A stretch of 53,354 bases of DNA from a virus (IMGVR_UViG_3300031539_000043:1-53354); one strand, 5' to 3'. Counted from the first letter of the stretch, positions 1,480 through 49,121 are shown. Made by a program: numbers and translations. The notes: a model not told the origin generated them from the letters alone.

Positions 1480-2001
1480 CTAGTGATAACTGAATTGTAT
1501 ATGAGGTAAATTTTTAAAAGTATTTCCATGTTCAATCATACTCTCAAATGAACTATTTTCATCACAATAAACAAGGCGATAAATATAACCTTCCCCATAC
1601 TTTGTTAATAAAAATTTAATATATTCTTTAGCTTCTTGAAATCTAATGTCATATTGATAGTTCATCCACTTTTTAGCTTCTCCAGAAATTTTATGTATAT
1701 CATACATATCACCAGTCCACCCTTCTTCAAGTTCCTCACTAGATTTAAATAAAAGCTTTTTATCAATTACAATATCCTCAAAGAGATGCCCCTCTTCTAG
1801 ATCAGTTAAGTATACTACATGAGCATCTTTAGCTGACAGTAAGGTAGGCATTTGATGTAAATCATCTTTTAAAACTCGGTGACAAACATCAACTCTATTT
1901 ATATGTTGAAACACATCATCAAATTCTAAAACTCTTTTTGGAAACATAACAATAAATGATGATGAAGAACTGTTGGTGACAAAATCTGTTTTTATTTTCA
2001 T
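1480..2001 (-). CDS. FVTNSSS-motif protein, copy 1
   Basis: Starts MKIKTDFVTNSSSSSF; its ATG immediately follows the radical SAM stop codon. Confidence 0.85.
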   Translation of the reverse strand: MKIKTDFVTNSSSSSFIVMFPKRVLEFDDVFQHINRVDVCHRVLKDDLHQMPTLLSAKDAHVVYLTDLEEGHLFEDIVIDKKLLFKSSEELEEGWTGDMYDIHKISGEAKKWMNYQYDIRFQEAKEYIKFLLTKYGEGYIYRLVYCDENSSFESMIEHGNTFKNLPHIQFSYH

Positions 2002-3033
2002 CTAGAATCCAGCTGGACATGTGTATGGATTTTTCTTTAAGATTTTTCTAAATCTTTCAAATTCAGGTGCATTATTCCAAACTTTAAAGATAGACTTTTT
2101 CTTTAAAGAAACACCACATTTTTTATGGTCTGCAAAACTACATGGAATTAGATGCATACTTGGAGAAATATATACAGACATTCTAGAACTTTCACATGAG
2201 TCAACAGACATCTTCTGTAGATCATTCATTTCTACATATTGAAGAACATGATTTACAAGGCAAGAATCCATACCAACCTTCATTTTACAAGAAGATTCTA
2301 TAATCCTTTCTGAAAAAGTTTTTAACTGATATGGGGTTGGGGTAAAATCAATGAGATCCAACGCCTGACCTTGTGGTTTAAACAATAGAAATACTATAGC
2401 ATTCAACTTATTTATGTCAAACAATGTTGATTGATTTCCATTTGTTCTCCATGGATTGTATCCAAAAATAATTTTTATAGCGTCTTCGTATGTATGTCTG
2501 GTTAATATAAAATGAATATTAGTTTTAATTTTGGCATTAGTTAATCTTTGTAAAGCTGAATATGAATAATCTTTTCTATAATCTGACACTGCTACAGCAC
2601 CCGCATATTTTTTGGATATTTCAATATGTTCATCTGTTAATCCATTTCCACTTGTAGTGTAGTTTGGAACAACATTATTTTCCCGACAATATTCAAGAAT
2701 CTCTTTAAAGTTTTCATGAAGATTGGGGTCACCTCTTCCACCCAGAGCTACTTGGTTTACATGGTATTTTGCTTCATCTATTATTTTTTTGAAATTGTCA
2801 AGGGTCATGTTATCTTCATATTCACGACCCTGGTAACAAATTTCACAATTGTTTATACAATGTCCCATGATTCCAACATCTAACATAGATGGAAATTCCA
2901 ACTGAAAGGGGTCTGGATGCCCGTTGATGCCTCTTAAGACTTCAATCCCAGTGTTGGTGTTAAACAAAAGTTCGTATTCATCATTAGAGAATTGTTTGTC
3001 AAATTCTCCAACCATAAAAGTATTATCTGACAT
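2002..3033 (-). CDS. Radical SAM protein with C-terminal SPASM/twitch-like cysteines
   Basis: CxxxCxxC (CINNCEIC), GGRGDP, NYTTSG; C-terminal SCES...PCSF...CP. Start placed at MSDNTF (3033), overlapping the upstream gene end; ORF track extends to 3111. Confidence 0.9.
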   Translation of the reverse strand: MSDNTFMVGEFDKQFSNDEYELLFNTNTGIEVLRGINGHPDPFQLEFPSMLDVGIMGHCINNCEICYQGREYEDNMTLDNFKKIIDEAKYHVNQVALGGRGDPNLHENFKEILEYCRENNVVPNYTTSGNGLTDEHIEISKKYAGAVAVSDYRKDYSYSALQRLTNAKIKTNIHFILTRHTYEDAIKIIFGYNPWRTNGNQSTLFDINKLNAIVFLLFKPQGQALDLIDFTPTPYQLKTFSERIIESSCKMKVGMDSCLVNHVLQYVEMNDLQKMSVDSCESSRMSVYISPSMHLIPCSFADHKKCGVSLKKKSIFKVWNNAPEFERFRKILKKNPYTCPAGF

Positions 3034-3289
3034 TTTCAATAATTTCTTCATCTTTGATTTTGTTTTCCTCTTCACTAATAACCTCCAATCTTTTAAGAAT
3101 GTCAAATTCATATATAGATCTTAAAGCAAATACTAATAACATAACCATAAGAGCAGAGACTTTACCAAAGCCAAGTGTAAAAATAAATATCGCTATTAAT
3201 ATCATATCTCCAAAATTTGATCTTTTATAATCAAAATTTGTCTTATAAATAAATTTTAAGAGTTTTGTTACTAAAATTTTTTTGTTCAT
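3023..3289 (-). CDS. Small membrane protein
   Basis: 88 aa with a long hydrophobic stretch; overlaps both neighbours. Confidence 0.65.
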   Translation of the reverse strand: MNKKILVTKLLKFIYKTNFDYKRSNFGDMILIAIFIFTLGFGKVSALMVMLLVFALRSIYEFDILKRLEVISEEENKIKDEEIIENVR

Positions 3290-5704: not shown

Positions 5705-5709
5705 GTAAA

Positions 5710-5880
5710 TTATTCTCCTTTAAGTTTCCAGACATTCATAACGTCTTGCATAAAAAATGTATGTACTCCAACTCCTTCTGATGTTACTGCTATAGTTCGT
5801 ATTATCCACCCACCGTAAACTCTCAATCTACTTGTATCATCATCTATTTTCTCAAATTTTTTAGAATATTCAATAGCCAT
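5710..5880 (-). CDS. Small hypothetical protein (56 aa, not in ORF track)
   Basis: Manual translation MAIEYSKKFEKIDDDTSRLRVYGGWIIRTIAVTSEGVGVHTFFMQDVMNVWKLKGE*; AAGGAG RBS upstream. Confidence 0.7.
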   Translation of the reverse strand: MAIEYSKKFEKIDDDTSRLRVYGGWIIRTIAVTSEGVGVHTFFMQDVMNVWKLKGE

Positions 5881-5974
5881 TTTTATCTCCTTTATTATAA
5901 GTTTAAAAAATCCTTTTCATTTATTAATATATATAGAAATAACTTTCTTAATGAAACCAACCTTCTTAAAAATA

Positions 5975-5990
5975 TAGAACAAAATATAAA
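5975..5990 (+). promoter_or_regulatory. Putative late promoter TAGAACAAAATATAAA (copy 1)
   Basis: Identical 16-mer at 23453..23468 (minus); lies just upstream of the RBS of the first gene of the plus-strand structural operon. Confidence 0.65.
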
Positions 5991-6007
5991 TTGGAGAATA
6001 AATTAAT

Positions 6008-6502: not shown

Positions 6503-6554
6503 TATGCCAAAAAGAGATATTATTCAATAACATATTTTCGGGAGGAAAATTAAA

Positions 6555-7277: not shown

Positions 7278-7307
7278 AATAAAAAATTATTAGGAGGATG
7301 AGTTATT

Positions 7308-8396: not shown

Positions 8397-8406
8397 AGGA
8401 TATTAT

Positions 8407-9462: not shown

Positions 9463-9473
9463 AGGATAATACC

Positions 9474-9959: not shown

Positions 9960-9991
9960 ATAATTAGATTTGAAAAGAAAGGAGATTTATT

Positions 9992-10970: not shown

Positions 10971-10974
10971 TTAA

Positions 10975-29034: not shown

Positions 29035-29889
29035 TTATATAAATCTTTTTCCATCAAATCCACCTTCTATCCCTTTCCAATTTACAGCAATAGCTTCAGA
29101 TGTATGGATGGATTCTTCATGGCTACATTTAATAATCCAATCATGAACTCCCGGAATATTATTTATTACAACAGATATATTACGCATTGCATCTTCAACA
29201 AACATAAGATTTTTTCCTGCGTTTTCAGCAATTGCTTGTTCGTCTTCCCTTTTTATAATTGGATAAGGTAAAACCTTAACACTTGATTCTACTGCTTCAA
29301 TAATATCTTCCAACCAAATATAGTGTGGTTCTCTTGTTTCAACTAAAATATTAGCAAAAGATCTTTGATTATGAGGAAACCCAGTTCTTCCTTGGCTTTC
29401 TAAATGATTGCATAATTCAGCAGAACATGGACAATAAGAAGCATATTGAATTATAACTCCCTGGTAGAAATCAAAATTACTAGGTAGATCTAGGTTATAT
29501 AACTGTCCTTCAAATCTACATTTATAATAAAGAGGAAACTCATTATTTGATTTAATTGATTTTTTTATTATTGGAAATCTAAATTCAAACTTCATAAAAC
29601 TGGAAGTCCCTCCAACATTTTTTCTAATATCCTCTAAAATTAATTTAATTAATTTATGCTTTAATGGAAGATCAAGATATGGTTTTAAGGTCCTTATTAG
29701 TCTAGACATTGAGATTCCTTTTGTATTTTTATCTAGGTTAGTCCTCATTGAAACATTAGCTATTAGCTGATGAAACCCACCATATTTAGATTCTAATTTA
29801 AAAGGAACCTCAACATTTTCAACTCCAACTTGACTTATTGGAATTTTAATATTTGGTTTATTTTTTTGAATATCTGGTAAGTTTATCAT
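29035..29889 (-). CDS. folE2: GTP cyclohydrolase FolE2/MptA (type IB)
   Basis: LPDIQ, ISQVGV, KGISMSR, SYCPCS, PHNQRS, KREDEQ, NLMFVEDAMR, HEESIH. Confidence 0.92.
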   Translation of the reverse strand: MINLPDIQKNKPNIKIPISQVGVENVEVPFKLESKYGGFHQLIANVSMRTNLDKNTKGISMSRLIRTLKPYLDLPLKHKLIKLILEDIRKNVGGTSSFMKFEFRFPIIKKSIKSNNEFPLYYKCRFEGQLYNLDLPSNFDFYQGVIIQYASYCPCSAELCNHLESQGRTGFPHNQRSFANILVETREPHYIWLEDIIEAVESSVKVLPYPIIKREDEQAIAENAGKNLMFVEDAMRNISVVINNIPGVHDWIIKCSHEESIHTSEAIAVNWKGIEGGFDGKRFI

Positions 29890-30161: not shown

Positions 30162-30344
30162 CTATCCCTCCTTTAAAACTAAATCTTTAATATCAAACAT
30201 ATAAATCTCTTTTTTTTCAGGTAAGATATTTAAAGGTTTTATTTTTTTAACTTCTGTAGTTGTTTTATTAATTTCATAAAAATAACTGAATCTATCACAA
30301 ATAGTAGATCTTGTATATGTTCCATTTGATGGTGATGCACTCAT
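30162..30344 (-). CDS. Small hypothetical protein
   Basis: 60-aa ORF overlapping the RNAP beta stop and abutting the next gene. Confidence 0.55.
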   Translation of the reverse strand: MSASPSNGTYTRSTICDRFSYFYEINKTTTEVKKIKPLNILPEKKEIYMFDIKDLVLKEG

Positions 30345-33340: not shown

Positions 33341-36048
33341 TCGATTTTTTCTCCTTTTAGTATTTTATCCATAACTCCAGAATATATTCCTTCATACAAT
33401 ATACCCTGTCGAATACTTCGTTTGGGATTTGAAAAAGCCATAGCAAGTATCCAAGACTCTTTATTTGGAGTAGATTGAATACTAAAATATTCTGGCTGGA
33501 CTGTTTCACGATTAGGCAATAGTCTCCATTTTTTATGTCCAACCCACATAAGTTGGGATACAACACATTCATAATGAACATGATAAATACTTTTATCATA
33601 TACATGAAATAGCTCTTCAACTATTTGAGTATAATTCTTGTTAATAAATTTATGTAATATTCCTGTAATAAAACTAAGATCTCCAACTATATCTTGCTGT
33701 TTCATATCATTATCATGATTATCATCTTGTTCATCTTTTATAACTGCAGAACCAGATGTATGAAACGTTCTAAGAACTAATTGTGTAGATCTTTCTCCGA
33801 GAGTTTGAGCAGCTATTATTCCAATAAATCTACTGTTAAGAGTTTTATATAATTCGCCATAACATTTATGACAAATCTTTGAATTTTTACAAAGAATTGG
33901 ACTTCTAATAAGAATTCTTTTTCCCAATAGTGGCATACAATTATCTTTTTGAATAAGAGTATGACTTCCATCTTCTTGTTTCATCCAACGACCCACTAAC
34001 ATATATGCTTTTCTTTTGGTATTAACATCTACTTCTAAATGGTCAGTAGTACCACAATCTTCTAAGGTTGTACTAAGTTGAAGGTTTGTACATGTGAATA
34101 TTAATTTTCTTGATAAATATCCGCTTGTGCCTGTATTTAAAGCAATATCAAGTAGTCCTTTCCTACAACCATATGTTGAATAAAAGAATTCTTGTTGATC
34201 TAAACCATCAATTAGATTCCGTTTAATTGGTAATGGTAATATTTCACCATCAAAATTTGAGATAAATCCTCTTGTCAAAATTAACTGTTTAACTTGATCC
34301 CAACTACCTCGTGCTCCAGAATCAATCATATATGAATATTTAAAATGCTTTCTTAATTCATCTGTTAGATTCTTACTAGAAAAGCTAACTAACTGGTCTC
34401 TTATGTCACCTTTATATATATCATCTCTAAATTTTTGTGAATCTTCAAATTTACAATCATTTAACGACATGGTGCAACCAAATAAAGTTGCGTATTTAAA
34501 ACCAATCATTTTTATTTTGTCAAGAATTTCAATAACATCCGAGCTTTTATATTTATCTTTAATATCATTTAATATTGCCATTAATGTTTTTTTATTAACT
34601 ACTGTGTCAATAACTGGATAATCTTCAGGCAAACATGAGTTAAAAACCTGTTGACCTTTACTTATTTTATGATTTTTATACTCAACAATTTCTTTAAGAT
34701 TATCGAAACTATCATTTGTTAAAGAGTATATACCCAGAATAATATCTTGACTTGGTATTGTTGATAAATCTTCATTTGCTGGGCTATGTAGATTTTCTGT
34801 TATAAATATTTTCTTTATTATTTCTTGTTTTGATACTTCGGTAATGGGAATATATACTGCCATTTGGTCACCATCAAAATCAGCATTAAATGGAGAACAT
34901 ACCAAAGGATGTATTTTAATAACCATATCTAATGTTAACTTTATCTTAAAACCTAGCATACTAAGTCTATGAAGAGATGGTTGTCTATTAAGAATACAAA
35001 CTTCCCCTTTTATAACATCTTCACAAACTCGGTATAAAACATTAGATTTTAATTTAATACATTTATCAACAAAGTCAATAGCATTATTTAATAACTTGAA
35101 TTTTCCCATCTCAATTATTTTTTTGGATATTTGTAATTTATATATTTCAAGAATCATAAAATAAGGCAAAGCACATTCATCTAATTTAAGGGTTGGATCA
35201 GGAACAATAACAGCTCGCCCTGAAAAATCAATTCTTTTTCCAAGAATATTCCCTCTTATTAATCCTTCTTTTTTTGCCATTTTTTCTAATATTCTGGTAT
35301 ATAGTTCATTAACATCTTTTTGAATTTGTTTAAAATAAGTATAATATAGATCCTTATCCCTATGAATATTAAGAATTGTTTCTCGTATGATTTCTTTCTT
35401 GGTTAAAATTTGAGTATAATACCTATTTATTTTATCCATTAATTGTTTATTCTTTCCCCCTGCCAACATAGTAGGTCTTAATTCTGGTGGGAGAACTATA
35501 ACATGATTAATTAAAAGGCTATCAATATTTTCTAAAACCAACTTCCATTCTTCAACTTCATAACCAGCTTCACGTTCAGCAACAAAATGAATTAGCTTTT
35601 TTATAGCATCCGTCTTTTCCCAGGTTTGAGTCCCCTTTGGAATATATTCAGGATTAACGGTAACAACCATATCATCCCCATCTTGATATAAGACACTTTT
35701 TTCCATTTTCATTAAATCGTCAATTCCAGTCTTTAAAGTTTTTCCGCCAATATGTACAAGTAGATCATAGAATAGTGGATTAACTACAGGCATTGGTAAT
35801 ACTATTTTTGCAAATCTTGTTCTACGAACATTACTATTTACTATGTCTACTTTACACAAATCACACTGGCCGCCGGATTTAGAAACACCATAATATGTTC
35901 CACATTGACAGGTATAGTTTTTTAAGGGTCCAAATATTTGTTCAGAAAACAAACCTTGTGGGTGAAAATATTTTTTTCCAATGATTTTTATGGACGTGAC
36001 TTCTGGTAGGTCTTCACAGAATTCTTGGTAGTTCAATATTTTTGGCAT
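33337..36048 (-). CDS. rpoC: Phage multisubunit RNA polymerase beta' subunit (compact, unsplit)
   Basis: GLFSEQIFGP..YTCQCG Zn finger, VLPPELRP, GKRIDFSGRAVI, NRQPSLHR, catalytic NADFDGD, SGYLSRKL, AAQTLGERSTQLVLRTFH. Confidence 0.96.
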   Translation of the reverse strand: MPKILNYQEFCEDLPEVTSIKIIGKKYFHPQGLFSEQIFGPLKNYTCQCGTYYGVSKSGGQCDLCKVDIVNSNVRRTRFAKIVLPMPVVNPLFYDLLVHIGGKTLKTGIDDLMKMEKSVLYQDGDDMVVTVNPEYIPKGTQTWEKTDAIKKLIHFVAEREAGYEVEEWKLVLENIDSLLINHVIVLPPELRPTMLAGGKNKQLMDKINRYYTQILTKKEIIRETILNIHRDKDLYYTYFKQIQKDVNELYTRILEKMAKKEGLIRGNILGKRIDFSGRAVIVPDPTLKLDECALPYFMILEIYKLQISKKIIEMGKFKLLNNAIDFVDKCIKLKSNVLYRVCEDVIKGEVCILNRQPSLHRLSMLGFKIKLTLDMVIKIHPLVCSPFNADFDGDQMAVYIPITEVSKQEIIKKIFITENLHSPANEDLSTIPSQDIILGIYSLTNDSFDNLKEIVEYKNHKISKGQQVFNSCLPEDYPVIDTVVNKKTLMAILNDIKDKYKSSDVIEILDKIKMIGFKYATLFGCTMSLNDCKFEDSQKFRDDIYKGDIRDQLVSFSSKNLTDELRKHFKYSYMIDSGARGSWDQVKQLILTRGFISNFDGEILPLPIKRNLIDGLDQQEFFYSTYGCRKGLLDIALNTGTSGYLSRKLIFTCTNLQLSTTLEDCGTTDHLEVDVNTKRKAYMLVGRWMKQEDGSHTLIQKDNCMPLLGKRILIRSPILCKNSKICHKCYGELYKTLNSRFIGIIAAQTLGERSTQLVLRTFHTSGSAVIKDEQDDNHDNDMKQQDIVGDLSFITGILHKFINKNYTQIVEELFHVYDKSIYHVHYECVVSQLMWVGHKKWRLLPNRETVQPEYFSIQSTPNKESWILAMAFSNPKRSIRQGILYEGIYSGVMDKILKGEKIE

Positions 36049-36260: not shown

Positions 36261-36714
36261 GGGCAGTTATACCTCCTATTTTTGATATCTCTTTTATTTT
36301 GTAATGTTTGGGATCTGGTTTTCTAAAACAATTATTTAAGTGCCAAGTTTCAACCATAGAAATTATCATAAATAAATAACTCATATCAAATTCTTTATTT
36401 TTTAGTTTTTCATCTATACAATATTCTCTTGTCTTTGGATCCATGTTTGGGTGACTTCCATTCATGATTTTTATAGATTGAACCTTATTATCTTTTGTTA
36501 TAAATGTTAACCCATTGATTTTAAAATTATTATTACAATCTTTAATTTTAAATAATTTATTTTCTTTAAATATATGTGTTGGGTAGATTTCTAAGGGGAA
36601 TAAAGATATTTCTCCTCTACCACGATTAACTTTATTTCTTGTAATCCATGAGTTCATTTTTATAAGGGTAGTTTCTACATCATGCTGCCCCAGTTTCTCT
36701 AATGAGTAAAACAC
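36238..36714 (-). CDS. Putative E2/UBC-like protein
   Basis: HPNMDPKTREYC = HPN-x8-C, the E2 active-site spacing; follows a ThiF-like gene. Start uncertain. Confidence 0.5.
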   Translation of the reverse strand: MFYSLEKLGQHDVETTLIKMNSWITRNKVNRGRGEISLFPLEIYPTHIFKENKLFKIKDCNNNFKINGLTFITKDNKVQSIKIMNGSHPNMDPKTREYCIDEKLKNKEFDMSYLFMIISMVETWHLNNCFRKPDPKHYKIKEISKIGGITAHDLPESI

Positions 36715-37612
36715 TAATCCTTTCCCCCTTTGAAGATAGGCTCATTGAATATTCTAAATCTTCTTTTTGTTTCGATATTAGATCAGCTATTACTTCTAAG
36801 ACTTTTGATGTGTCACTTCCTTTTGGAATGATAGCATATTCTGGAGAAGTTGTAAATGACATACTAAATTTTTTCCAAAGATGTTCTTCACCAACAAAAA
36901 CATCAATATCTTTTGTTTTTGCTTCTTGAACAGTTGTGTTGATATAATCTTCAAATGAATGAATTTTTTCTAATCCTTTATGAGTTTCGTATACTAAATC
37001 ATTAGAATTCTTTAATTTAATATCTTGAAATATATTGGATATTGTTTCATCAATATTTAAAGATTGAAGGACTTTATTGTTTATCATTTTATTTAAAATT
37101 TTTGGAGTTGAAATTAATTTATATGCTATAAATGCTGCTTCCCTAATTTCGCTTTTCTTTAAAATCATAAAATAACTACCTAAATGAGATTTTCTATGAA
37201 CAAATTGTCTACAGTCAATTACTAAACTTCTTTCATCAATATAAAATTTAACATCAATTTCTTGCTTTCTACTGCATATAAAATCTCGACAATCTATAAC
37301 TAAATCACATGGAGGTAGTTTTGTTGTTCCTTCATTGTATTCACTTTGGAATATTTGTGTCCTTGTGTATAATGGATCTACTCTATTAAGCAAACATTCA
37401 ACTTTTGGTTTTCCAATATCACTTTTTTTGAAGAATGAGCTATCTAAATTATTTTTTTCTACTATCTGTGGGTCAATTAATATCAATTTCTTAATATTTT
37501 CATTATAAGAAAGATGTTTATATAAAAAGCTTCCCAAACTACCTAAACCAATTATACATACATTTTGATAACATAATTCTGTCTTAGATTTTTTTGAATT
37601 CATATAATACAT
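36680..37612 (-). CDS. ThiF/E1-like protein (second copy, possibly degenerate) with extra C-terminal domain
   Basis: IIGLGSLGS, IDPQIVEKNNL, GKPKV, DLVIDCRD; lacks the NLxRQ arginine; ends LLIRETGAA. Confidence 0.75.
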   Translation of the reverse strand: MYYMNSKKSKTELCYQNVCIIGLGSLGSFLYKHLSYNENIKKLILIDPQIVEKNNLDSSFFKKSDIGKPKVECLLNRVDPLYTRTQIFQSEYNEGTTKLPPCDLVIDCRDFICSRKQEIDVKFYIDERSLVIDCRQFVHRKSHLGSYFMILKKSEIREAAFIAYKLISTPKILNKMINNKVLQSLNIDETISNIFQDIKLKNSNDLVYETHKGLEKIHSFEDYINTTVQEAKTKDIDVFVGEEHLWKKFSMSFTTSPEYAIIPKGSDTSKVLEVIADLISKQKEDLEYSMSLSSKGERISVLLIRETGAA

Positions 37613-37629
37613 TCGTTACAGTCCTTGGG

Positions 37630-37659
37630 ATTGCTGAGGAACTTTCGCCCCCCAGCAAT
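37630..37659 (-). promoter_or_regulatory. GNRA-capped RNA hairpin 3' of the Ubl gene
   Basis: Minus-strand RNA AUUGCUGGGGGGC-GAAA-GUUCCUCAGCAAU, 13-bp stem with three G-U pairs, no U tail. Confidence 0.7.
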
Positions 37660-37676
37660 TTATTTAACTCCGCTTT

Positions 37677-38156
37677 TTATCCCTTTGACCCAGCTGGTTT
37701 CAGGAATTCTAACTCGTCACCATCTTTTAGAGTATAGGTTCCTTCAACATCTTTTCCGTTGACTAGACCTGGAGACATTTTTTCAATATTAAGAACTTCT
37801 CTGAGGAAGTCAGCAACCTCAGCAACTGAACGACCGGCAACTGGAAAGTTACCAGATGAAGCTCCACTGGATACACGAATAGTAGTAGAACATTTATCAC
37901 CTTTTTTCGCTGATGGTTTTGTAAGAACAGATGTAGCACAAAACTCAATAGCGTTCATTGCTTTGATGGCAGCTGCAGGAGCAATTGATGCTGTTGCAGC
38001 TTTTGGGGCTAATGGTCCTTGACTTTGTAATATTGCTTCGATGACAACAGCTTTAGTTTTTTTGGAAAGTCCTACAAGACCCATTTCTACTGCCAATGGT
38101 TTTAAATCATTTTTTACGTTCATGTTTTCAAGTTCTTCTCTTAAGTAAATCGGCAT
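37677..38156 (-). CDS. Ubiquitin-like (beta-grasp) protein with N-terminal Rho_N/HeH-like domain
   Basis: C-terminal VNG.....YTLKDGDELEFLKPAGSKG with terminal Gly; N-terminal EELENMNV..LK.LA...GL.GLSKKTK..VIEAIL; Ala/Pro linker; flanked by E1 genes. Confidence 0.8.
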   Translation of the reverse strand: MPIYLREELENMNVKNDLKPLAVEMGLVGLSKKTKAVVIEAILQSQGPLAPKAATASIAPAAAIKAMNAIEFCATSVLTKPSAKKGDKCSTTIRVSSGASSGNFPVAGRSVAEVADFLREVLNIEKMSPGLVNGKDVEGTYTLKDGDELEFLKPAGSKG

Positions 38157-38193
38157 AATTCTTTATTTCTCCTTTGTTTTGTTTTTTGTGAAA

Positions 38194-38871
38194 TCATTTC
38201 ACGATTCGAGTTTTTGCATCAACGACCATCCTTGACATATCAAAATAAATTTCGGATGCGTTAATGTTTTGTTGAACAACGACGTTATAATATGCCCAAC
38301 ACATAATTGTAGCCACACTTAAATTAGTAAAATATAACTGCGGTTCTGATTTTGATAATTCTTCGCAAGACATTTCATCTGGGGATCTATCATCAGGCGT
38401 TGCAATTTCGGGATGATATGTACATAGATCTGGTGTTATATTAACACCCCCCTTTCTGATAAAAATTTGTACATTGCCATCTGTAAGTTCATTACCTCCA
38501 GAGATTAAAATAACATCATTTAATGTCTTACAATAGTTAGATACAACCATTCGAGTTTTGTGATTATCAACACAGAGAAAAACTATATCTTTCTCACCTA
38601 TGCCTCTAGTTATTGTATCTACAGTAATATATTCTGTAATGTATTCTATAATTAAATTTAAATATTTAATTTTAAGTTCACTTGCTTTAATTTCAGCTTT
38701 ATTACCTAACCTTATAAACTCTTGACGTTCAAGATTTTTATCTTCGTATTCATCACCATCAATTAAAGTTATAACAAAGCTAGTGTCAACTTGAGAATAA
38801 TTTAAAAATCTACATAGTCTTTCAATTAAAATACTTCCAACACCACCTAATCCAATTATTTTAATATTCAT
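38194..38871 (-). CDS. ThiF-family E1 activating enzyme
   Basis: IIGLGGVGS, DGDEYEDKNLERQ, CVDNHKTR, SGGNE, candidate catalytic SC (MSCEE). Confidence 0.9.
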   Translation of the reverse strand: MNIKIIGLGGVGSILIERLCRFLNYSQVDTSFVITLIDGDEYEDKNLERQEFIRLGNKAEIKASELKIKYLNLIIEYITEYITVDTITRGIGEKDIVFLCVDNHKTRMVVSNYCKTLNDVILISGGNELTDGNVQIFIRKGGVNITPDLCTYHPEIATPDDRSPDEMSCEELSKSEPQLYFTNLSVATIMCWAYYNVVVQQNINASEIYFDMSRMVVDAKTRIVK

Positions 38872-38872
38872 T

Positions 38873-40198
38873 TTATATAGTCCTTTTTAAGAATTTTGTA
38901 ACCTTTGAGAATGGAGTTGTGGGATTGCCATCTGGCGTAGGAATTAAAACTTTATTTTCATGTTCATGTAAATAAGCTTCACTCCGTAACTGTTCCTCTA
39001 CTAAATCCTCAGGGGTTTGGGGGAATTCTTGTTTGAGATCATAAGCTAATGATCCATCATCTTTTTCCATACATTCTGTTTCGTCTAATATAAAATTATT
39101 AGTTTCAGGTAAATCTTCATCTGGATCTATACTAGTTTCTAAAATTTCATATGCATATTCTAGTTTAGAATCTTTGAATATACAATTTCGACATGGGTTA
39201 TATTCATCAAGATTACCAGAATCTTCAAAATCTTCAAAATCTCCATGATCTGGAAATTTGATACCATCTTTAACTGGTCCAACATTTAATATATTTTTAG
39301 TATTACCCATTTTTCCTTTATTAATCATCCATTCTGTAAGGGAATCATAACCACTTCCGAAAAAGTCAAAGAATTCATAATCCATATAATTCTGATTACG
39401 AGCAGCGTATGTTTTGGAAGTCCATACTTTTCTAGAAACTTTCTTTAACCACTTTTTGTTAAATTGTCTTTGATTTTCAGAAACTTGAATCTCAAACCTT
39501 TTATCATATCTAATAGGAGGTTTTACAATTGTTTCAGGTTCAACCAAAGTCATTTTCCCATCAATATATTTATATATCTTTGTATTATTATAGGAATTGT
39601 ATGTATATGAATTTCGAGGAACTTCAACTGATACACATTTGTCAATATAATCACATGGATCTACAATGACACGATACCCATTGACAACAATTGATACTGA
39701 AAGACTTTGATAATCATCTGTTAAATGACCAACTGTAATATGAAGTCCGTCAAAATGTTTCTCATCTTTATCATCAGTTGGAGAATGAAATGCAGACATT
39801 CTAGCATGACTATGGATTGTTCCTATCAGATTATATCCAGGAATGCCGGTTCCTTCTTCATAAGCAAGAGATGCTGCAGTTACTTCTTGTTTTGGCACAC
39901 CCAAAGTATATTTATTTTTTTCTTCACTATAATATAAAAAGACATTGGCTTCTCCACTATAAGTTTCTACAACCGCTTTAAAAAATGATATTACTTTGGC
40001 CATTTGCGGGCCTGAAATTTTAGGCAGGTCCATTTTGGCCCATGGTTTTAATTCATTAAGTATTGAGATTTTATCAACCTTTGTTACACTTTCAACTAAT
40101 CCTACTTTCTTTTTTAGAAAAATACCTTGTTTTGCAATTAAATAACATATTTCATCTGCTGGTAGTTCTCCACCTTTATACAGGTATATTGGAAACAT
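38873..40198 (-). CDS. JAB/MPN-domain metalloprotease (deubiquitinase-like) with long acidic C-terminus
   Basis: GEA...PKQEVT...GTIHSHARMSAFHSPTDDKDE (E...HSH-x7-S-xx-D). Confidence 0.88.
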   Translation of the reverse strand: MFPIYLYKGGELPADEICYLIAKQGIFLKKKVGLVESVTKVDKISILNELKPWAKMDLPKISGPQMAKVISFFKAVVETYSGEANVFLYYSEEKNKYTLGVPKQEVTAASLAYEEGTGIPGYNLIGTIHSHARMSAFHSPTDDKDEKHFDGLHITVGHLTDDYQSLSVSIVVNGYRVIVDPCDYIDKCVSVEVPRNSYTYNSYNNTKIYKYIDGKMTLVEPETIVKPPIRYDKRFEIQVSENQRQFNKKWLKKVSRKVWTSKTYAARNQNYMDYEFFDFFGSGYDSLTEWMINKGKMGNTKNILNVGPVKDGIKFPDHGDFEDFEDSGNLDEYNPCRNCIFKDSKLEYAYEILETSIDPDEDLPETNNFILDETECMEKDDGSLAYDLKQEFPQTPEDLVEEQLRSEAYLHEHENKVLIPTPDGNPTTPFSKVTKFLKRTI

Positions 40199-42734
40199 TT
40201 AAAATTCTCCTTTCTTCTACTGGATAACTCATACAAACGTCTGGGTTAATGGTATACATACCATGGAAATTGGGGTATGCTCTTACAAATGGTTGTACTT
40301 TTAATTGAGTTTGGGAATATCTAGGGGTTAAGAATCCTATTCTATCAACCACTGTTTTTAATTCTGGGTAAAAATATCCATTTGAATAAGGATTTATAGC
40401 ATCTTCTCCGCTTAGATATTGAGTGACCAATCTATCCCCCACAAGTTGAAGACATAATAAATTTTGTAAATTCCGATTTTCAGAATATGGAATTGTAGTC
40501 ATATCCCCAGGTTGATATTTAAATTTTTTTTGATATATCATCGGAATATGTTTGAGCGATTTCCATTTTTTATTATTCATGCTAATTAAGTTAAAATTTT
40601 CTTTCAGTTCATCAGCCCAAAGTGTTGCACCATTTGAACATAATGCTAATGGAACATCTCCACCAGTATCTGTTAAGAAACCAACAATTATGTTTACATC
40701 TTTCATTGGAAAATTAAAGATTTGAGGTTTCTTTGCTTGAATTTTAAGACCAGATGTCATCCCATCATACTCTTTTTCAATATGTCTTAATGTACCAACA
40801 TTAACTGTAAAATCAGATGAACTTTTATTTAGATATATATGTTCAGATTTATTTCCATGTTGATCTTCTAATAATATATTAAGATTATTATCTTTAGATA
40901 GAAAACCTGTTATAGTTTTAACTTTTAGCATTTCAATTGGATTTATCCAATTAGATGTAACAACTTTATCTCCAACTTTAAATGATAAGTCCATATCAAA
41001 ACTTTCAATAAATAAATGTTCTTTATCTTTAAATATAACATTCATAGTCTCATTATAATCAGGTTTATAAATATTGTGTTCATCTATAAACAGGTAATTT
41101 TGTGCATAAGAGTTAGTCTTTATATGTAGATTAGCGATCATTGTCGTTCCTAATCTACATATAGAAGGAAGTTTTCTAAACCCCTTAGGATTAATAAGTC
41201 TTTTATTTAAGTCATCAGAAGTTATCCAATAATTTTTATCCCCTTTCATTTCTTCGAATAGTGTTGTCATTTTACCGCCAGGTAAAATATCTAAATCATT
41301 GAATCTTAATTTTTTGATAATTTTAACAGGCGCTGAAGCTCTACTGTAACAGTTTTTATAATCAAATAGAATATCATATATTTTATTTTTAGTTAATTTA
41401 ATTCCATTTATCAATATCTTTTTCATATTCATGACTTTTATATTTTTTATATCTTCTAGAGCTATTAAAGAAGATTTAATTCTAGCTTCAATTTTTCCAT
41501 CAATTCCATATCTCATATATAAAATTTTATTATAAATTTCATTACCATGTATATTAGTAGATTTTATTATAGATCCTTGTTTAACGACTGACCCATCTTT
41601 TAAAGTTATGGATTGAATAAATCTTTCTTTCATAATACTTTCTCTCAAGTAATTCTCGAATAATTTTGTTAATTTATATATTATAATCTTTTTATTACTA
41701 TCCTCTAGTTTTATATGGGTAAGTCTACTTGCTCCTCCTGGAGACATAAATGATCTCACGAAATATTTTTTATTTTTTATCATAAAAGAATCATTTACAA
41801 ATATTGGTATTCTTTCAATATTAATAGAATCCGCCATATTATCATATATACGAGTTTTTGTTTTTTCATCTATTTTAGTTGTTAGAGTTGGTTCATAAAA
41901 GATTTTTTCTACTAATTTTTGAAATCCATTATCTTCACACTTATCAAAACGAGTATTTGAGTTTTCAACTTTATTAATTACATTACCAATTGTATCATAA
42001 GGAATCCATTCAACATTATAGATAAACATAGGATCAACTTTACTATAATATTGCCATGTTAAATAATCACAAACAAATGGTATATCATTATAAGATTGTA
42101 CGTTATATATATAATCTTTGTTAAATACATTTCCCCAAAATGTCTTTATAACACCATTGATAGCAGAGGATACAGTTTTGTTAGAATAACTAGATGTTAT
42201 CGTTCCTGTACAAACTCTTTGATTCTTATTGATATTCATTAAAGGAATTATACATAAATAATCTCCAAAACTATTAAGAGGGGTAACCCTTGAAAAAACT
42301 TTTAATTCTTTAAAGTTATTAAATTGGTCTACTAAAATTATATAAATTAAATATGGAAATGCTAAATAAAATTTATATGGTTTTTGATTTTCTTTAAACC
42401 AGTTTTCATAACCGAATTTTTTGAGATCTCCAGTTGCTTTTAATTCTGCAACAGTCATTGACATATCATAATTAAGGAACATTGTTCTCATTTGTGGTGG
42501 TTCTTCAATTACAAATAATTTATAACTATTATGATTTATATTAATAGAATATCTACAGTTTGCTGGCAATATATAAGATATTTCTTTCTTCTCTTTAATT
42601 TTATCAAAAAACATATTAATTGGCAGTTGTTTTTTTCTTTCTAGTGTGCCTTCTCGTTCTTTTTCAATATCAACATAATGATTATCAAAATAACTAACGT
42701 TCCATTTATCAAGAATTAATTCTCGCTTTACCAT
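40176..42734 (-). CDS. Prokaryotic E2-like domain fused to a large unknown C-terminal region
   Basis: EEPPQMRT, LAFPYLIY, PLMNINKNQRVCTG (candidate catalytic Cys), FW...FN resemble Prok-E2 family D / PRTRC protein B; directly upstream of JAB, E1, Ubl. Confidence 0.7.
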   Translation of the reverse strand: MVKRELILDKWNVSYFDNHYVDIEKEREGTLERKKQLPINMFFDKIKEKKEISYILPANCRYSININHNSYKLFVIEEPPQMRTMFLNYDMSMTVAELKATGDLKKFGYENWFKENQKPYKFYLAFPYLIYIILVDQFNNFKELKVFSRVTPLNSFGDYLCIIPLMNINKNQRVCTGTITSSYSNKTVSSAINGVIKTFWGNVFNKDYIYNVQSYNDIPFVCDYLTWQYYSKVDPMFIYNVEWIPYDTIGNVINKVENSNTRFDKCEDNGFQKLVEKIFYEPTLTTKIDEKTKTRIYDNMADSINIERIPIFVNDSFMIKNKKYFVRSFMSPGGASRLTHIKLEDSNKKIIIYKLTKLFENYLRESIMKERFIQSITLKDGSVVKQGSIIKSTNIHGNEIYNKILYMRYGIDGKIEARIKSSLIALEDIKNIKVMNMKKILINGIKLTKNKIYDILFDYKNCYSRASAPVKIIKKLRFNDLDILPGGKMTTLFEEMKGDKNYWITSDDLNKRLINPKGFRKLPSICRLGTTMIANLHIKTNSYAQNYLFIDEHNIYKPDYNETMNVIFKDKEHLFIESFDMDLSFKVGDKVVTSNWINPIEMLKVKTITGFLSKDNNLNILLEDQHGNKSEHIYLNKSSSDFTVNVGTLRHIEKEYDGMTSGLKIQAKKPQIFNFPMKDVNIIVGFLTDTGGDVPLALCSNGATLWADELKENFNLISMNNKKWKSLKHIPMIYQKKFKYQPGDMTTIPYSENRNLQNLLCLQLVGDRLVTQYLSGEDAINPYSNGYFYPELKTVVDRIGFLTPRYSQTQLKVQPFVRAYPNFHGMYTINPDVCMSYPVEERRILNVSNIPV

Positions 42735-43105
42735 TATTCACCTCTTAGAAATTTTACGGTTTTTGCAAAGTTGATTAAAATTTTCTCTGCTTTGTTTTCA
42801 TTTATTTGCCAAACTTTTATCTTTTTTAAATTCTTAGATTCATCAACATAAAACTTATTATACAAACTCCACAATACTGTTAGATATTCTTCCTCTCCCT
42901 CTCTTTCTAAAGATAGATAAGAAACTTCATTTTTTTTAATTCCAGGAACTTCAATTGTTAGAAAAGTATTTGGTCCAGTTGGTAGTCTTTCCGGATGTTT
43001 GCAATTTTTTATTTCTTCTAATTCTATCCTTTCACACATTTTTTTAACTTGTAAGGTTAAATCCTTTTCGCCAAGTTCTTTGATTATATCCCCTAATATT
43101 GTCAT
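42734..43105 (-). CDS. Hypothetical protein
   Basis: 123 aa, GGAGG RBS; 1-nt overlap with the E2 gene. Confidence 0.7.
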   Translation of the reverse strand: MTILGDIIKELGEKDLTLQVKKMCERIELEEIKNCKHPERLPTGPNTFLTIEVPGIKKNEVSYLSLEREGEEEYLTVLWSLYNKFYVDESKNLKKIKVWQINENKAEKILINFAKTVKFLRGE

Positions 43106-43114
43106 TAAACCTCC

Positions 43115-43435
43115 TTAATTTGTTTTAATTTTATATGTTTTATTTATAGTCTTTAAATATTCAACTTTATCAAAAGGAACTGATCTCCATCCTTTTTTCT
43201 CTAAATCATAAACATGAATAATTTTACTTTTTTGCATTAACTTGAGAATTTTTGGAATATTAATATTTTTGTCTGGATAATCTTTTTTAGGAATTAATGA
43301 AAAATCTAAAGTACATTTCATTATCCTCGTTGAACCATCAGATTTTTTTTCAAACTTTACAGTTACAACTTTTTCATCCCTAATAATATTCCAAAATTCT
43401 ATTGCATTATCTATAATAGTTGGGTCGACCGCCAT
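43115..43435 (-). CDS. WYL_2 / SH3-like beta-barrel protein (DUF2693-like)
   Basis: VTVKFEKKSDGSTRIMKCTL...VYDLEKKGWRSV. Confidence 0.75.
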   Translation of the reverse strand: MAVDPTIIDNAIEFWNIIRDEKVVTVKFEKKSDGSTRIMKCTLDFSLIPKKDYPDKNINIPKILKLMQKSKIIHVYDLEKKGWRSVPFDKVEYLKTINKTYKIKTN

Positions 43436-43439
43436 AGTT

Positions 43440-44468
43440 TTATCCTCCTTGCCTTATTTTTTTATGGACTAATTCATCCACATTGTCTCCGTACTTACTC
43501 ATGAGTAAACACGTATGATTACATAATTTACAAAACATTTTTTTATCTTTAATTATACATTGTTTAGTATAAGGATTAACTTCCATATCTTTTGTAAATA
43601 GATTATTTATGGAAACACTGTTAGGAGTATAATGTCCTCTAATACGAGTACATAATCTAATTGAACCATCAGCATCAACAGAAATATTATGTAAATCTTT
43701 TTCAATACCACAATCCATATTAGATGGCAATATATTCCAAATAGCAGGGAGTAAGAATTCCTTCATATGAATATTCAAACTTTTATCATCACATATTCTT
43801 TGAAATTGCTCTGCCAATTCGGGGGATATATGAACCAATTTCCATGGTTCTGTAACATTTGAAAAATCATAATATTCGCTTTTTGCAGTATCAATAAAAG
43901 TTATATCACTGTTAATTCCGTACCCAGTTAATTCTTTAATAAGATCATAAAGATATGGAATGTTTTCTCGCATAACAGTAATTTCAGCTACTAAATCTTT
44001 TACTATATATTTACGTTTTAAAAGATTTGTTAATCCACTGGTACTTTTCTTTACTCGATCAGATCCATCTTTTTGATTGAATACAGGATCTACTGATGAA
44101 GTAAAACCGCGTATATCCCCTCCCGTTTTTTCAAATAGTCGCTCGGTTAATGGTTGAATCTCAGGAGTGTTATTTGTAATGATTGTATAATTAATATTTT
44201 CTTTGTTGCAGAAATTAATAATATCAGGCAAGTCTTTTCTTAACAGTGGCTCACCTCCATATATGATTATGAAAATATCTGGATTATGAGCTTTGAATTT
44301 ACCTAATAATTCTATTACATACTCCGTGGACATTTCATTTTCATAATAATGTTTCATATCAGGATATATACTTGGTTTGTTTTTATAATTTCTTGTAATA
44401 CCACAGTATGAACATTTGAGATTACACCTTCTTGTTATAAATAAGTTGACTATTTTTATTTTATTCAT
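43440..44468 (-). CDS. Radical SAM protein with C-terminal Cys cluster
   Basis: TRRCNLKCSYC, GGEPLL, ITN; C-terminal C...DADGSIRLC...CKLCNHTC. Confidence 0.9.
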   Translation of the reverse strand: MNKIKIVNLFITRRCNLKCSYCGITRNYKNKPSIYPDMKHYYENEMSTEYVIELLGKFKAHNPDIFIIIYGGEPLLRKDLPDIINFCNKENINYTIITNNTPEIQPLTERLFEKTGGDIRGFTSSVDPVFNQKDGSDRVKKSTSGLTNLLKRKYIVKDLVAEITVMRENIPYLYDLIKELTGYGINSDITFIDTAKSEYYDFSNVTEPWKLVHISPELAEQFQRICDDKSLNIHMKEFLLPAIWNILPSNMDCGIEKDLHNISVDADGSIRLCTRIRGHYTPNSVSINNLFTKDMEVNPYTKQCIIKDKKMFCKLCNHTCLLMSKYGDNVDELVHKKIRQGG

Positions 44469-45153
44469 CGGGTCTCCCTATCATCACACCTTTATTAAAC
44501 ACATCTTTAATACTATTTATTATATGAAAAGCATCTTTTGGTCCTGATAGTTCACTTACTATTTTATTATTTATTATAAAAATGTTTCCAACTTTTGTTT
44601 CATGTATAGCAAGTTCAGGAGTTGTTGTATATTTTCCTGTTGGATCTCCACCATCCCACCCACCACTCCCAGTACTTTCAGGGATACATGTGTAAATCAA
44701 TGAACAAAAAGGAATGTTTACATCTTTTATAATTATCTTTAATAGATCTTCAATTACCTCATTAATGGGGTCAACATGAATTATAGTGTGTGGTTTAGTA
44801 TCTATATTTAATATTGTTTTTACACACTTTACTTCTTCATCTGAGTCAATCCATTCATTACTATTTACCATATGTAAAGTTATTTCTAAAGTTTCTGGAT
44901 AGTCAAAATTTTTTTCATATTCAGAATTGGTTAAAACCAACCAGGTAGAATTATATGAGTATGTACCAGTTTTTATAGTGTATTTACTTCCTTTAAATAG
45001 ATTAGTAATCATATTTTGTGTTATTTCTTTTTGAGCTAGATACCCATGACCTTGTTCAGAAAAATATTTAACAGGTAAAAATCCAGTACATTTGGTATGC
45101 AAAACAAATGATGTACTGGAACTATTGGTTACAAAGTCTGTTTTAATTTTCAT
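44461..45153 (-). CDS. FVTNSSS-motif protein, copy 2
   Basis: Starts MKIKTDFVTNSSSTSF; 3' end overlaps the radical SAM start by 8 nt. Confidence 0.85.
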   Translation of the reverse strand: MKIKTDFVTNSSSTSFVLHTKCTGFLPVKYFSEQGHGYLAQKEITQNMITNLFKGSKYTIKTGTYSYNSTWLVLTNSEYEKNFDYPETLEITLHMVNSNEWIDSDEEVKCVKTILNIDTKPHTIIHVDPINEVIEDLLKIIIKDVNIPFCSLIYTCIPESTGSGGWDGGDPTGKYTTTPELAIHETKVGNIFIINNKIVSELSGPKDAFHIINSIKDVFNKGVMIGRPDE

Positions 45154-45162
45154 ATATATCTC

Positions 45163-47355: not shown

Positions 47356-47356
47356 A

Positions 47357-48373
47357 TTATACCCCTTCTATTAGTTGAGTTGCTACCTTTAGATAATTTT
47401 CAATTTCATTTTCAGGAATTTCTTTAGCTTCTACATAACGTTTAAATATATCAGCTTTTGACATACTTGAACTAATTCCTCTGTTTGTTATATCTACCTC
47501 AGACTTATCAATTATTTGAAGATCATCTATATCGTTGCCTAGATCAATCTTGTCTTTCTTTACAATTTTAACATAAGATCCGCACTCTTGTTCTTTGCGA
47601 GCTCTTTCAATAATTTCTTGTTTATTCTCTTCGGTAATTTCGTATTCAAGATATTTTTTATATCCAGTAGTTGGTATACTTTCAACTTTTAACGTTTCTG
47701 TATCAACAACCAGAAATCGTTTATCTTCATTTTTCTCGCCCCAATCTAATTGAATGGGGGAACCTACATAGTATAAACTAATGTTATCATTAATAATTTG
47801 CTGTGGCTTATGATAATGTCCAAGGAGAACTAACTTATATTTTCCAATTAAATCTTTTAAACCAATATCAGCAATAATACTTATACCACTATTTAAAATT
47901 CCTTCATTCAATCCAAAATGAGATATTAAAATATCAGCTTTATATTCTTTAATTGTTTTAATCATGTCATATGAATATGGCACAAATAATATATTTTTAT
48001 TATCACCATATCCTGAAAATTGAGTAATCCATTCTACATTTGGAACATGTTGAAGAGGCCTTAGTGATGAAATTGATTCTGATCCTTTACTAGATAGGTC
48101 ATGATTACCATCAATAACCCAAAATTCTAAATCTTTATATGTGTCAAAGAAATCTAACAGGATTTCTTGAGCAATTGAATAAATAATTGATTTGTTATGT
48201 AGAAGATCTCCACCAATTATAAATGTTCTTATATCATTATTACAACAATAATCAGCTATATTATAAACTGTCTTTTTTATACTATGTAATCTTTCTGGTA
48301 AACTACTGGTTTGTTCAATAGTATCTTGCCCATATTTTGATAAATGAATATCAGCTGTATATACAAATTTCAT
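47357..48373 (-). CDS. sbcD: Mre11/SbcD-like nuclease (gp47-like)
   Basis: ADIH, GGDL, GNHD, SH, GHYH, YVGSP.QLDWGE. Confidence 0.93.
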   Translation of the reverse strand: MKFVYTADIHLSKYGQDTIEQTSSLPERLHSIKKTVYNIADYCCNNDIRTFIIGGDLLHNKSIIYSIAQEILLDFFDTYKDLEFWVIDGNHDLSSKGSESISSLRPLQHVPNVEWITQFSGYGDNKNILFVPYSYDMIKTIKEYKADILISHFGLNEGILNSGISIIADIGLKDLIGKYKLVLLGHYHKPQQIINDNISLYYVGSPIQLDWGEKNEDKRFLVVDTETLKVESIPTTGYKKYLEYEITEENKQEIIERARKEQECGSYVKIVKKDKIDLGNDIDDLQIIDKSEVDITNRGISSSMSKADIFKRYVEAKEIPENEIENYLKVATQLIEGV

Positions 48374-48765
48374 CTGTCTATTAACTCCTTTATTTCTTGA
48401 AGGTTACAAATTGATAAGAATGTTTTTTCAATTACTTCTGGTTTTACTCCTGTCATACTATCCACTCCTTTCTCCCCAGATTCAATCTGAGCTATAATTA
48501 TTCCTTTTTTTATTAAAAGATTTTTAAGAGCATAAAATGAATTCTCATTTATATCTTCAGGATTGACGGTAAAACCATTTTTAAGTGAATCAATACCATC
48601 AAGAGTAGACTCAAAGAAATAACTTTCTTCACCCTCTTCTTCATTATCTAGTTCCCAATCTAATAAGCTCTCCAATTCTTCTTTAGTAGTTTCAAAATTT
48701 GGAGGTATTACAACTATATAAGCAGTAGATGAGCTATTTGTTACAAAATCTGTTTTTATTTTCAT
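48370..48765 (-). CDS. FVTNSSS-motif protein, copy 3
   Basis: Starts MKIKTDFVTNSSSTAY; acidic. Confidence 0.85.
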   Translation of the reverse strand: MKIKTDFVTNSSSTAYIVVIPPNFETTKEELESLLDWELDNEEEGEESYFFESTLDGIDSLKNGFTVNPEDINENSFYALKNLLIKKGIIIAQIESGEKGVDSMTGVKPEVIEKTFLSICNLQEIKELIDR

Positions 48766-49121
48766 TAGTTATCCATCCAACACCCTGAAATATGGACCGG
48801 TTCAACTTCTATACCAAAAGAATCCATAATTTGTTTTTTAACTCTAATTTTAAATTCTGCTAATGTTTCATCATCTTTCATTCTGGTATATTCAATACCA
48901 ACCATTACTTGTCCGTTATAATCATATCCGGTTGATGTTTCGAGTTCATTTCCTCTGGTAAAAACGTCAAGATTATACTGTATATCATCGAGATCTATAT
49001 CTTCTTTTTCTTGAATCTCTGTCATAATATTTTGTGGTATTTTATCAATTTCTATATTACCACCCATTACTACGAATGATGAAGAACTACTGTTTGTTAC
49101 AAAGTCTATTTTAATTTTCAT
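48765..49121 (-). CDS. FVTNSSS-motif protein, copy 4
   Basis: Starts MKIKIDFVTNSSSSSF; acidic. Confidence 0.85.
   Translation of the reverse strand: MKIKIDFVTNSSSSSFVVMGGNIEIDKIPQNIMTEIQEKEDIDLDDIQYNLDVFTRGNELETSTGYDYNGQVMVGIEYTRMKDDETLAEFKIRVKKQIMDSFGIEVEPVHISGCWMDN

Follow-up and report, generated by a model that had tools for sequence, protein, structure and literature searches.

What does a short N-terminal peptide do when it is shared by proteins that are otherwise dissimilar? The question is raised by a stretch of viral DNA of 53,354 nucleotides, IMGVR_UViG_3300031539_000043:1-53354 (the window; a whole record with 29% G+C), in which four small open reading frames (ORFs) begin with the consensus MKIK(T/I)DFVTNSSS and two genes for radical S-adenosylmethionine (radical SAM, rSAM) enzymes each lie directly against one of them. 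We refer to motif-bearing proteins as N proteins, and to the window copies as W1–W4. Judged by their sequences, N proteins make up a superfamily of small acidic proteins that is very large and has no name, and together with the rSAM enzymes they probably form a new enzyme–partner module of the phage–host arms race. For the N-terminal segment itself, the answer we put forward, giving it a little less than an even chance, is that it would serve as the rSAM recognition site, and probably the modification site, of a phage–host conflict module.

Four window proteins share a conserved N-terminal segment

All four ORFs lie on the minus strand, at 1480..2001 (W1; 173 amino acids (aa), beginning MKIKTDFVTNSSSSSF), 44461..45153 (W2; 230 aa, beginning MKIKTDFVTNSSSTSF), 48370..48765 (W3; 131 aa, beginning MKIKTDFVTNSSSTAY) and 48765..49121 (W4; 118 aa, beginning MKIKIDFVTNSSSSSF). 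These coordinates, the strand and the starts had been reported in a first, sequence-only reading of the window, and all were recovered as claimed. The four proteins are acidic, with isoelectric points (pI) of 5.43, 5.38, 4.24 and 4.29 for W1 to W4. The segment common to N proteins spans about 18 residues and can be described as a strand MK(I/V)Kx(D/G)FV, a loop (T/S)NSSS(S/T)x and a second strand (F/Y)(I/V)(V/I); a six-frame scan of the window with the pattern [DGNE]F[VIL][TS]NSS returned the four N-termini only.

Over codons 1–13, the copies are identical to one another at 31–33 of 39 bases and differ by 4–6 synonymous versus 0–1 non-synonymous changes. Because synonymous changes outnumber non-synonymous ones, the peptide is conserved and under selection and does not reflect a DNA repeat, just as the sequence-only reading had argued. 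An alignment of 40 W1-type proteins at 26–42% identity, which also includes one identical copy, has 16 invariant columns, and 12 of these fall within residues 1–16. A natural variant occurs in Citrobacter phage Margaery, where the segment reads MKIRSGFVSNSSSSSF and positions 4, 5, 6 and 9 are seen to be changeable (Gly at position 6, Ser at position 9).

The N family is large, widespread and unannotated

Searching viral contigs with a back-translated MKIKxDFVTNSSS pattern yielded at least 119 matching stretches with at least 146 motif ORFs of 93–234 aa, in 110 of which the motif stands at the first possible start codon, and a looser pattern added 58 further copies within the same viral loci. 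The sequence-only reading had proposed a profile or pattern scan of phage and bacterial proteomes. With a profile built from the first 32 residues of 134 sequences, a scan found 6,565 cluster representatives at E ≤ 1e-3 among 1.84 billion, and among the 150 matches listed almost all start at residue 1. The family is acidic throughout (median pI 4.7). Large phage records carry 2–10 copies each (5, 10, 10 and 5 in four jumbo records, 2 in phage Margaery), and W1-like proteins are present in 156 of 50,697 cultured phage records, in T4-like phages of enterobacteria. No cultured phage contained DNA near-identical to the window.

None of this is covered by existing annotation: library scans found no Pfam, NCBIfam or PADLOC model for the N family, and searches for the motif strings in the searchable literature returned nothing relevant. 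The nearest entry is phrog_7397 (PHROGs v4, function unannotated), which W1 matches from end to end (E 1.6e-12, residues 1–173 on profile positions 1–170); it differs from the family described here in representing a single body type, the contact with W3 and W4 being confined to its first 20–23 positions. Any Pfam match at all was seen in 4 of the 124 N representatives scanned, namely CTI (1.3e-17), Peptidase_S74 (3.6e-9), DUF7487 (4.1e-8) and FTH (2.8e-4). If these are real fusions, they are relevant to the idea of a portable tag.

Some family members depart from the usual architecture. A few representatives (P0012–P0015) have a second, internal motif besides the one at residue 1, perhaps through fusion of tandem genes or through read-through in gene calling; in one of them (P0014) the first motif is followed by a Cys-rich stretch. 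In Clostridia-type bins we also observed bacterial proteins of about 480–510 aa that start with MKIK.DFVTNSSSE (L130, 3200-4717; L149, 2752-4293; L160, 5669-7204). They have a hydrophobic stretch after the motif and no ORF with a CxxxCxxC motif in the loci examined, and may be membrane-anchored relatives.

Two radical SAM families accompany N genes in viruses

Both enzyme genes lie on the minus strand. The first (2002..3111; rSAM-A) carries the cluster motif CINNCEIC and scores 33.5 bits against the Radical_SAM model (PF04055; gathering cut-off 29.5), and the second (43440..44468; rSAM-B) carries CNLKCSYC at residues 15–22 and scores 52.5 bits, which with the CxxxCxxC motifs places both in the radical SAM superfamily. 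Alignment to homologues suggests position 3051 as the true start of rSAM-A, whose family has a conserved N-terminal extension of about 55 residues ahead of the cluster motif; rSAM-B has no such extension. At the other end, rSAM-A has four invariant Cys (twitch/SPASM-like) and rSAM-B an invariant CxxCxxxC. In Agrobacterium tumefaciens the rSAM-A homologue shows CxxCx5Cx3C, the auxiliary-cluster Cys pattern of SPASM enzymes, and bacterial rSAM-A homologues end in such a motif. The only solved structure with a sequence match to rSAM-A is SkfB, a peptide-modifying rSAM enzyme (E 1.3e-4). None of the named NCBIfam rSAM maturases (PapB, WgkB, MftC, PqqE, HxsB/C and others) exceeded its curated cut-off, the best scores being 47.1 bits for rSAM-A (cut-off 380) and 63.5 bits for rSAM-B (cut-off 340).

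The sequence-only reading had also stated that both rSAM genes are translationally coupled to a motif copy, and this arrangement was borne out: the stop codon of the rSAM-A gene abuts the start of W1, and W2 and the start of the rSAM-B gene overlap by 8 bases. We asked how general this linkage is in a sample of 150 viral motif copies from 113 loci, window included, counting as an enzyme any same-strand ORF of at least 200 aa with CxxxCxxC within its first 200 residues. Such an ORF lies within 50 base pairs of 42 of the 150 copies, within 1 kilobase (kb) of 61 and within 3 kb of 71, and 67 of the 113 loci have one. Of the 71 ORFs of this kind, 70 fall into two BLAST families, each containing one of the window enzymes. 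Family A (53 members) lies upstream of N, with 29 members abutting it, mostly next to W1-type proteins, the commonest body type directly downstream of rSAM-A. Family B (17 members) lies downstream of N, with 13 members abutting it; these include all three of the W2-type proteins, which always stand directly upstream of rSAM-B. Motif positions 14–16 were considered as a sign of enzyme specificity, with mostly SSF in the copies abutting A and T/S, S/C and F/Y in those abutting B; the candidate was set aside, being confounded with body type.

The association extends beyond neighbouring genes. Among long records without an enzyme near N, family A was found in four of five and family B in four of four jumbo records, with at least one enzyme in five of five. 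In the cultured phages, rSAM-A occurs in 171 of the 50,697 records, nine of them from Escherichia, with host genus counts near-identical to those of W1-like proteins. Adjacency and co-inheritance of enzyme and substrate genes are marks of an rSAM maturase with a cognate substrate, and for the enzymes and their putative substrates both are seen here.

In the lineage of the window a whole block is kept, in the order helicase, N, SbcD, SbcC, N, rSAM-B and a WYL_2-like gene. The last of these (106 aa, E 1.8e-8) and an unannotated 123-aa gene (together 42734..43435, minus strand) follow rSAM-B; both are present in 16 of 17 loci, and the 17th locus ends after the first gene. These two genes could belong to the module or owe their place to conserved gene order alone.

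In bacteria, N and rSAM-A stand behind an Avs2-like protein

In a cellular sample of one genome per prokaryotic species, 54 loci contained 58 motif ORFs, of which 32 abut or overlap a CxxxCxxC ORF. Most of these loci share one gene order: a large protein (about 700–1,070 aa), a small protein that we term U (about 130–146 aa), N (about 131–139 aa) and rSAM-A. The U–N pair was found in 30 loci, 26 of them with a same-strand ORF of more than 400 aa upstream. By record titles, the cassette occurs in Bacteroidota, Bacillota (including the isolate Tissierella praeacuta DSM 18095), Desulfobacterota, Omnitrophota, Nitrospirota, Campylobacterota, Spirochaetia and Chloroflexota, and also on large alphaproteobacterial plasmids such as pAt of A. 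tumefaciens Ach5, whose N protein starts with MKLKMDFVSNSSSTSF. Each of the six large proteins tested matches models of Avs2, an antiviral STAND protein, in the NTPase region only (49–83 bits against a curated cut-off of 1000; PADLOC E 2e-24), and that of A. tumefaciens has a SMEK_N domain at its N-terminus. No literature combining SMEK, radical SAM and an NTPase was found.

U and N are paralogous (hhalign 97.3%, E 2.4e-11, residues 15–122). When the two are aligned with MAFFT, the N-terminus of U is a plain strand with nothing opposite TNSSS(T/S). Since U aligns with the N body yet lacks the motif, the motif is an elaboration of an N-terminal segment on a fold that exists without it. U proteins matched no model in the Pfam, NCBIfam and PADLOC libraries. 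A search for relatives of bacterial N longer than 245 aa (fused forms) found none, which is weak evidence.

With three independent arrangements now known (A upstream of N, B downstream of N, and the bacterial order of N followed by A) and co-occurrence at the level of the genome, the link to radical SAM enzymes made by the sequence-only reading is sustained. Could it be nothing but inherited gene order, a few successful phage lineages having kept N and rSAM as neighbours with no functional tie between them? The strong synteny in the window's lineage and the derivation of the viral loci from related contigs would fit such an origin. It would have to account, however, for three arrangements that involve two unrelated enzyme families, for co-occurrence that persists when the genes are far apart, and for the phylogeny of the enzyme. 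A quick tree of rSAM-A (a careful search was unfinished, and two long branches are unplaced) separates a well-supported clade of 46 uncultured-phage rows from a cassette group of 24 rows with a support of 86, and these separate clades argue against recent transfer of rSAM-A between phages and bacteria. We therefore consider inherited order very unlikely as the whole explanation.

The bacterial loci bear in the same way on a second alternative, in which the segment would be a targeting or assembly tag for capsid packaging, import into a phage compartment, or homo- or hetero-oligomerization. There is a precedent in the internal proteins of T4, which share an N-terminal capsid-targeting sequence. 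As there, small phage proteins that are otherwise dissimilar have a short N-terminus in common, each large phage encoding many of them, and the segment is flexible in models of the monomers (see below). Unlike the T4 tag, the N motif also occurs in chromosomal and plasmid STAND operons of bacteria, which have neither capsid nor phage compartment, and it travels with radical SAM genes, a linkage that a targeting role leaves unexplained. We regard this alternative as highly improbable.

Two groups of loci in the cellular sample deserve separate mention. Four loci in Thermoplasmatales and Promethearchaeota bins of metagenome-assembled genomes (MAGs; L126, L144, L159 and L165) have 26–29% G+C and several N copies; L126 shows a phage-like order (a helicase-size ORF, N, N, and SbcD/SbcC-size ORFs) and the rSAM-A of L144 falls within the phage clade. 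They probably represent viral contigs that were binned with archaea, or else viruses infecting those hosts. The same cassette fragment of about 3.27 kb, with an identical N protein, was observed in Vampirovibrio, Bacilli and Eubacterium MAGs (L121, L124 and L169), which suggests a mobile element in common or a binning artefact.

Diverse bodies behind an N-terminus that models leave unplaced

From residue 21 onward, BLAST sorts the N proteins of the first sample into 24 clusters and the 497 unique proteins of a larger sample into 62. W1–W4 belong to four different clusters, between which the profile–profile probability is 7% or less. Five cluster pairs are linked by hhalign (97%, 96%, 87%, 86% and 69%); W1-, W2- and W4-type bodies have no profile link to any cluster, and W3-type bodies are linked to two small clusters only. 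The sequence-only reading had described the bodies as unrelated cargo. At the level of detectable sequence this holds for W1–W4, and mostly for the family, without its proving different folds; as a general description it needs qualifying, with some clusters linked at 86–97% and U sharing the body of N. On the strength of these links and of the U/N paralogy, at least part of the family is one diverging fold with an added N-terminal element rather than a tag on foreign domains.

AlphaFold2 models of W1 and W4 (mean predicted local distance difference test (pLDDT) 70.8 and 83.1) show a folded body and an N-terminus below pLDDT 50, over residues 1–9 and 1–11, respectively; the first modelled strand begins at residue 13. 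An N-terminus left unplaced while the body folds is what would be expected, in such models, of a segment that requires a partner. From the alignment of U with N we infer that the segment may form a hairpin, two strands joined by the NSSS run; residues 1–11 are placed in neither model. A complex prediction of rSAM-A with W1, S-adenosylmethionine and a 4Fe-4S cluster gave scores of 0.20, 0.42 and 0.18 against a mark of 0.32, and was run without controls.

Structural searches led to no characterized protein. For the W1 model, Foldseek returned nothing at E ≤ 1 in the PDB, and BFVD gave no match; for the W4 model, the best hit of a wide search with VIA had a Z of 4.8, a value that common small alpha/beta arrangements also reach, and BFVD gave one match at E 7.9e-4 and weaker ones, all to uncharacterized viral proteins. 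The ESM Atlas contained unnamed viral or bacterial clusters only.

These results bear on a third alternative, that N proteins share one diverged alpha/beta fold whose NSSS loop is its own ligand-, phosphate-, metal-binding or catalytic site and whose tie to rSAM exists at the pathway level, for example with N binding or carrying the rSAM product. The profile links at 86–97% between some clusters, the order beta-alpha-beta-beta-alpha-beta predicted for W4, the uniformly low pI and an acidic motif (GDE.G, SD) that comes after a strand late in several body clusters, the last recognized only by eye, are all in keeping with a common fold. Against this stand the values of 7% or less for most cluster pairs, W1–W4 among them, the missing match to a known fold or family, and the fact that the motif segment is unplaced in both models. 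Moreover, since motif-less U keeps the body, the loop would be dispensable for the fold. On balance, we think this explanation rather unlikely.

The closest published system is an accessory pair of KpAvs2

The operon of KpAvs2 (Bechon et al. 2024, PMC11564622) consists of Avs2, the radical SAM protein Avap1 and the small protein Avap2, which has an HHpred match to DUF6375. According to the parts of that report available to us, Avap2 binds Avs2 and is required for defence, Avap1 is required against T2 and dispensable against SECphi18, the predicted site of Avap1 is unsuited to NTP, and the authors left the roles of both proteins open; homologous operons are described from Nitrospirae and Syntrophobacterales. 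The bacterial cassette resembles this operon in combining an Avs2-like STAND NTPase, a radical SAM protein and a small protein, and has taxa in common with it. It differs in having four genes (with both U and N) instead of three, and N-terminal domains other than the Mrr nuclease of KpAvs2, such as SMEK_N in A. tumefaciens. This comparison follows the published description of the operon. The KpAvs2 text, as far as available, mentions neither an N-terminal motif nor phage homologues.

On this basis, the uncharacterized Avap1/Avap2 pair is the closest published system. The sequence-only reading had proposed an undescribed system: for the motif this stands, no family or literature on it having been found, while an operon of a STAND protein, a radical SAM protein and a small protein is already in print (PMC11564622, available text). 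A hidden Markov model (HMM) of PF19902 (DUF6375) had no match in the four window proteins, in 27 U proteins or in six-frame translations of 5 cassette genomes, by a method less sensitive than the HHpred search of PMC11564622; it had none in 301 Bacillota genomes either, where the controls were silent too, so that this is not evidence of absence. No STAND NTPase was seen among the annotated neighbours of the window N genes (helicase, SbcD-like, SbcC-like), a survey that did not scan every window ORF.

The binding of the KpAvs2 small protein to its STAND partner (PMC11564622, available text) invites a fourth explanation, a docking adaptor. Here, the unmodified N-terminus would plug N onto the enzyme, for example by strand pairing, and the bodies would bring targets or the STAND sensor; the rSAM would then act on the target so brought, or on a small molecule. 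This would readily accommodate the service of 2–10 different bodies by one or two enzymes per genome, the presence of the motif on only one of two bacterial paralogues (N, not U) and the conserved extension of about 55 residues in rSAM-A. It sits less well with rSAM-B, which has no such extension, and with the invariant Ser/Asn run, which to us resembles a reaction or ligand site more than a docking strand. Docking without modification is a possibility we rate as low.

Among radical SAM systems that act on polypeptides, the arrangement is reminiscent of SkfB–SkfA, PqqE–PqqA and the anaerobic sulfatase maturases, in which an rSAM enzyme with extra C-terminal Cys is encoded beside the polypeptide, here putatively, that it acts on. 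As with SPASM/twitch maturases, a conserved recognition segment is joined to a variable remainder, and one enzyme may have several substrates. The candidate site of N proteins differs in lying at residue 1 of folded proteins of 90–230 aa, without a leader and without Cys. Sulfatase maturation relies on a motif of the type (C/S)xPxR, and the N segment contains no such motif.

Of other candidates, the Ophion defence system (bioRxiv 10.1101/2025.09.30.679545, available in part) was rejected for its unrelated make-up of rSAM, PHP and PRTase. A term search of the accessible text of a Nature 2026 survey of STAND proteins (PMC13581612) found neither radical SAM nor Avap, and a literature search for phage SPASM radical SAM enzymes beside hypothetical proteins returned nothing relevant.

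A candidate recognition and modification segment

How would the module work if the segment is a recognition and modification site? A dedicated rSAM enzyme (A, twitch/SPASM-like, or B) would bind the N-terminal segment and then modify a residue of the Asn-Ser-Ser-Ser loop, with the fast-diverging body giving every N paralogue its own target or role. In the bacterial cassette an Avs2-like STAND NTPase gene is followed by motif-less U, N and rSAM-A; a large phage has 2–10 N paralogues together with one or both enzymes, possibly for counter-defence.

Several observations weigh against this proposal. In the viral sample, 64 of the 150 copies have no CxxxCxxC ORF within the locus examined, and in phage Margaery the family A enzyme lies about 20 kb from both N genes. 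The linkage counts are not phylogenetically independent, and adjacency in the window's lineage may be inherited gene order because the whole block is conserved. The enzymes themselves are ambiguous: rSAM-A of the window scores 16.5 bits against the SPASM model PF13186, below its cut-off of 21.5, and the best solved relative of rSAM-B, MoaA, acts on a small molecule. The usual peptide substrates of rSAM enzymes are also unlike a folded protein that presents its target at residue 1 without a leader. As for the motif, its tolerance of Gly at position 6 and Ser at position 9 means that not every residue is essential, and the invariance of the positions used as bait is partly circular, all samples having been collected with the motif itself; the signs free of that circularity are the W1-type alignment and the Margaery variant.

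Genome context of the window

The source of the window is a large phage. Its genes include those for a large terminase and a baseplate protein, for a helicase and SbcCD-like proteins, and split RNA polymerase beta-like genes. Two ORFs of the RNA polymerase beta-subunit family (999 and 903 aa; 30341-36048, minus strand) match phage families, and these matches suggest that the phage has its own multisubunit RNA polymerase, like jumbo phages. Genes for a type I GTP cyclohydrolase FolE2 (29038-29889, minus strand; E 6e-65) and a 6-pyruvoyl-tetrahydropterin synthase/QueD-like protein (50542-50931, minus strand; E 1e-35) would cover the opening part of a pterin or 7-deazaguanine pathway, and their sequences suggest nucleotide or DNA modification by the phage. 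Downstream of rSAM-B (36680-42734, minus strand) are genes for an 852-aa protein of no known family, a 441-aa protein with a weak Prok-JAB match and two ThiF-family E1-like proteins (225 and 310 aa). Their order is kept in related viral loci, and from its sequences the block resembles a phage-encoded set for ubiquitin-like conjugation.

Implications for phages and their hosts

A nameless family with thousands of sequence clusters, present in several copies in many large phages, gains a handle in an invariant 16-residue segment that is open to synthesis, mutation and mass-spectrometric tracking. Cultured sources are at hand in T4-like enterobacterial phages, Tissierella praeacuta DSM 18095 and the pAt plasmid of A. 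tumefaciens. The recognition-and-modification reading also offers a concrete hypothesis for the role of radical SAM and small accessory proteins in Avs2-type STAND operons.

A bolder version, which we consider unlikely, holds that the NSSS segment carries a new rSAM-installed modification on folded proteins, and that large phages use it to arm 2–10 fast-evolving paralogues, or to bring an enzyme to them, these paralogues imitating or intercepting the small U/N regulators of bacterial Avs2-type STAND sensors; if true, one enzyme–partner module would serve both sides of the phage–host conflict. If the loop is not modified, N proteins still make up a large and unannotated part of phage gene content that merits a Pfam entry. 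If rSAM enzymes do modify it, that would bring a new motif on folded proteins, and phage biology as well, within the scope of radical SAM protein chemistry.

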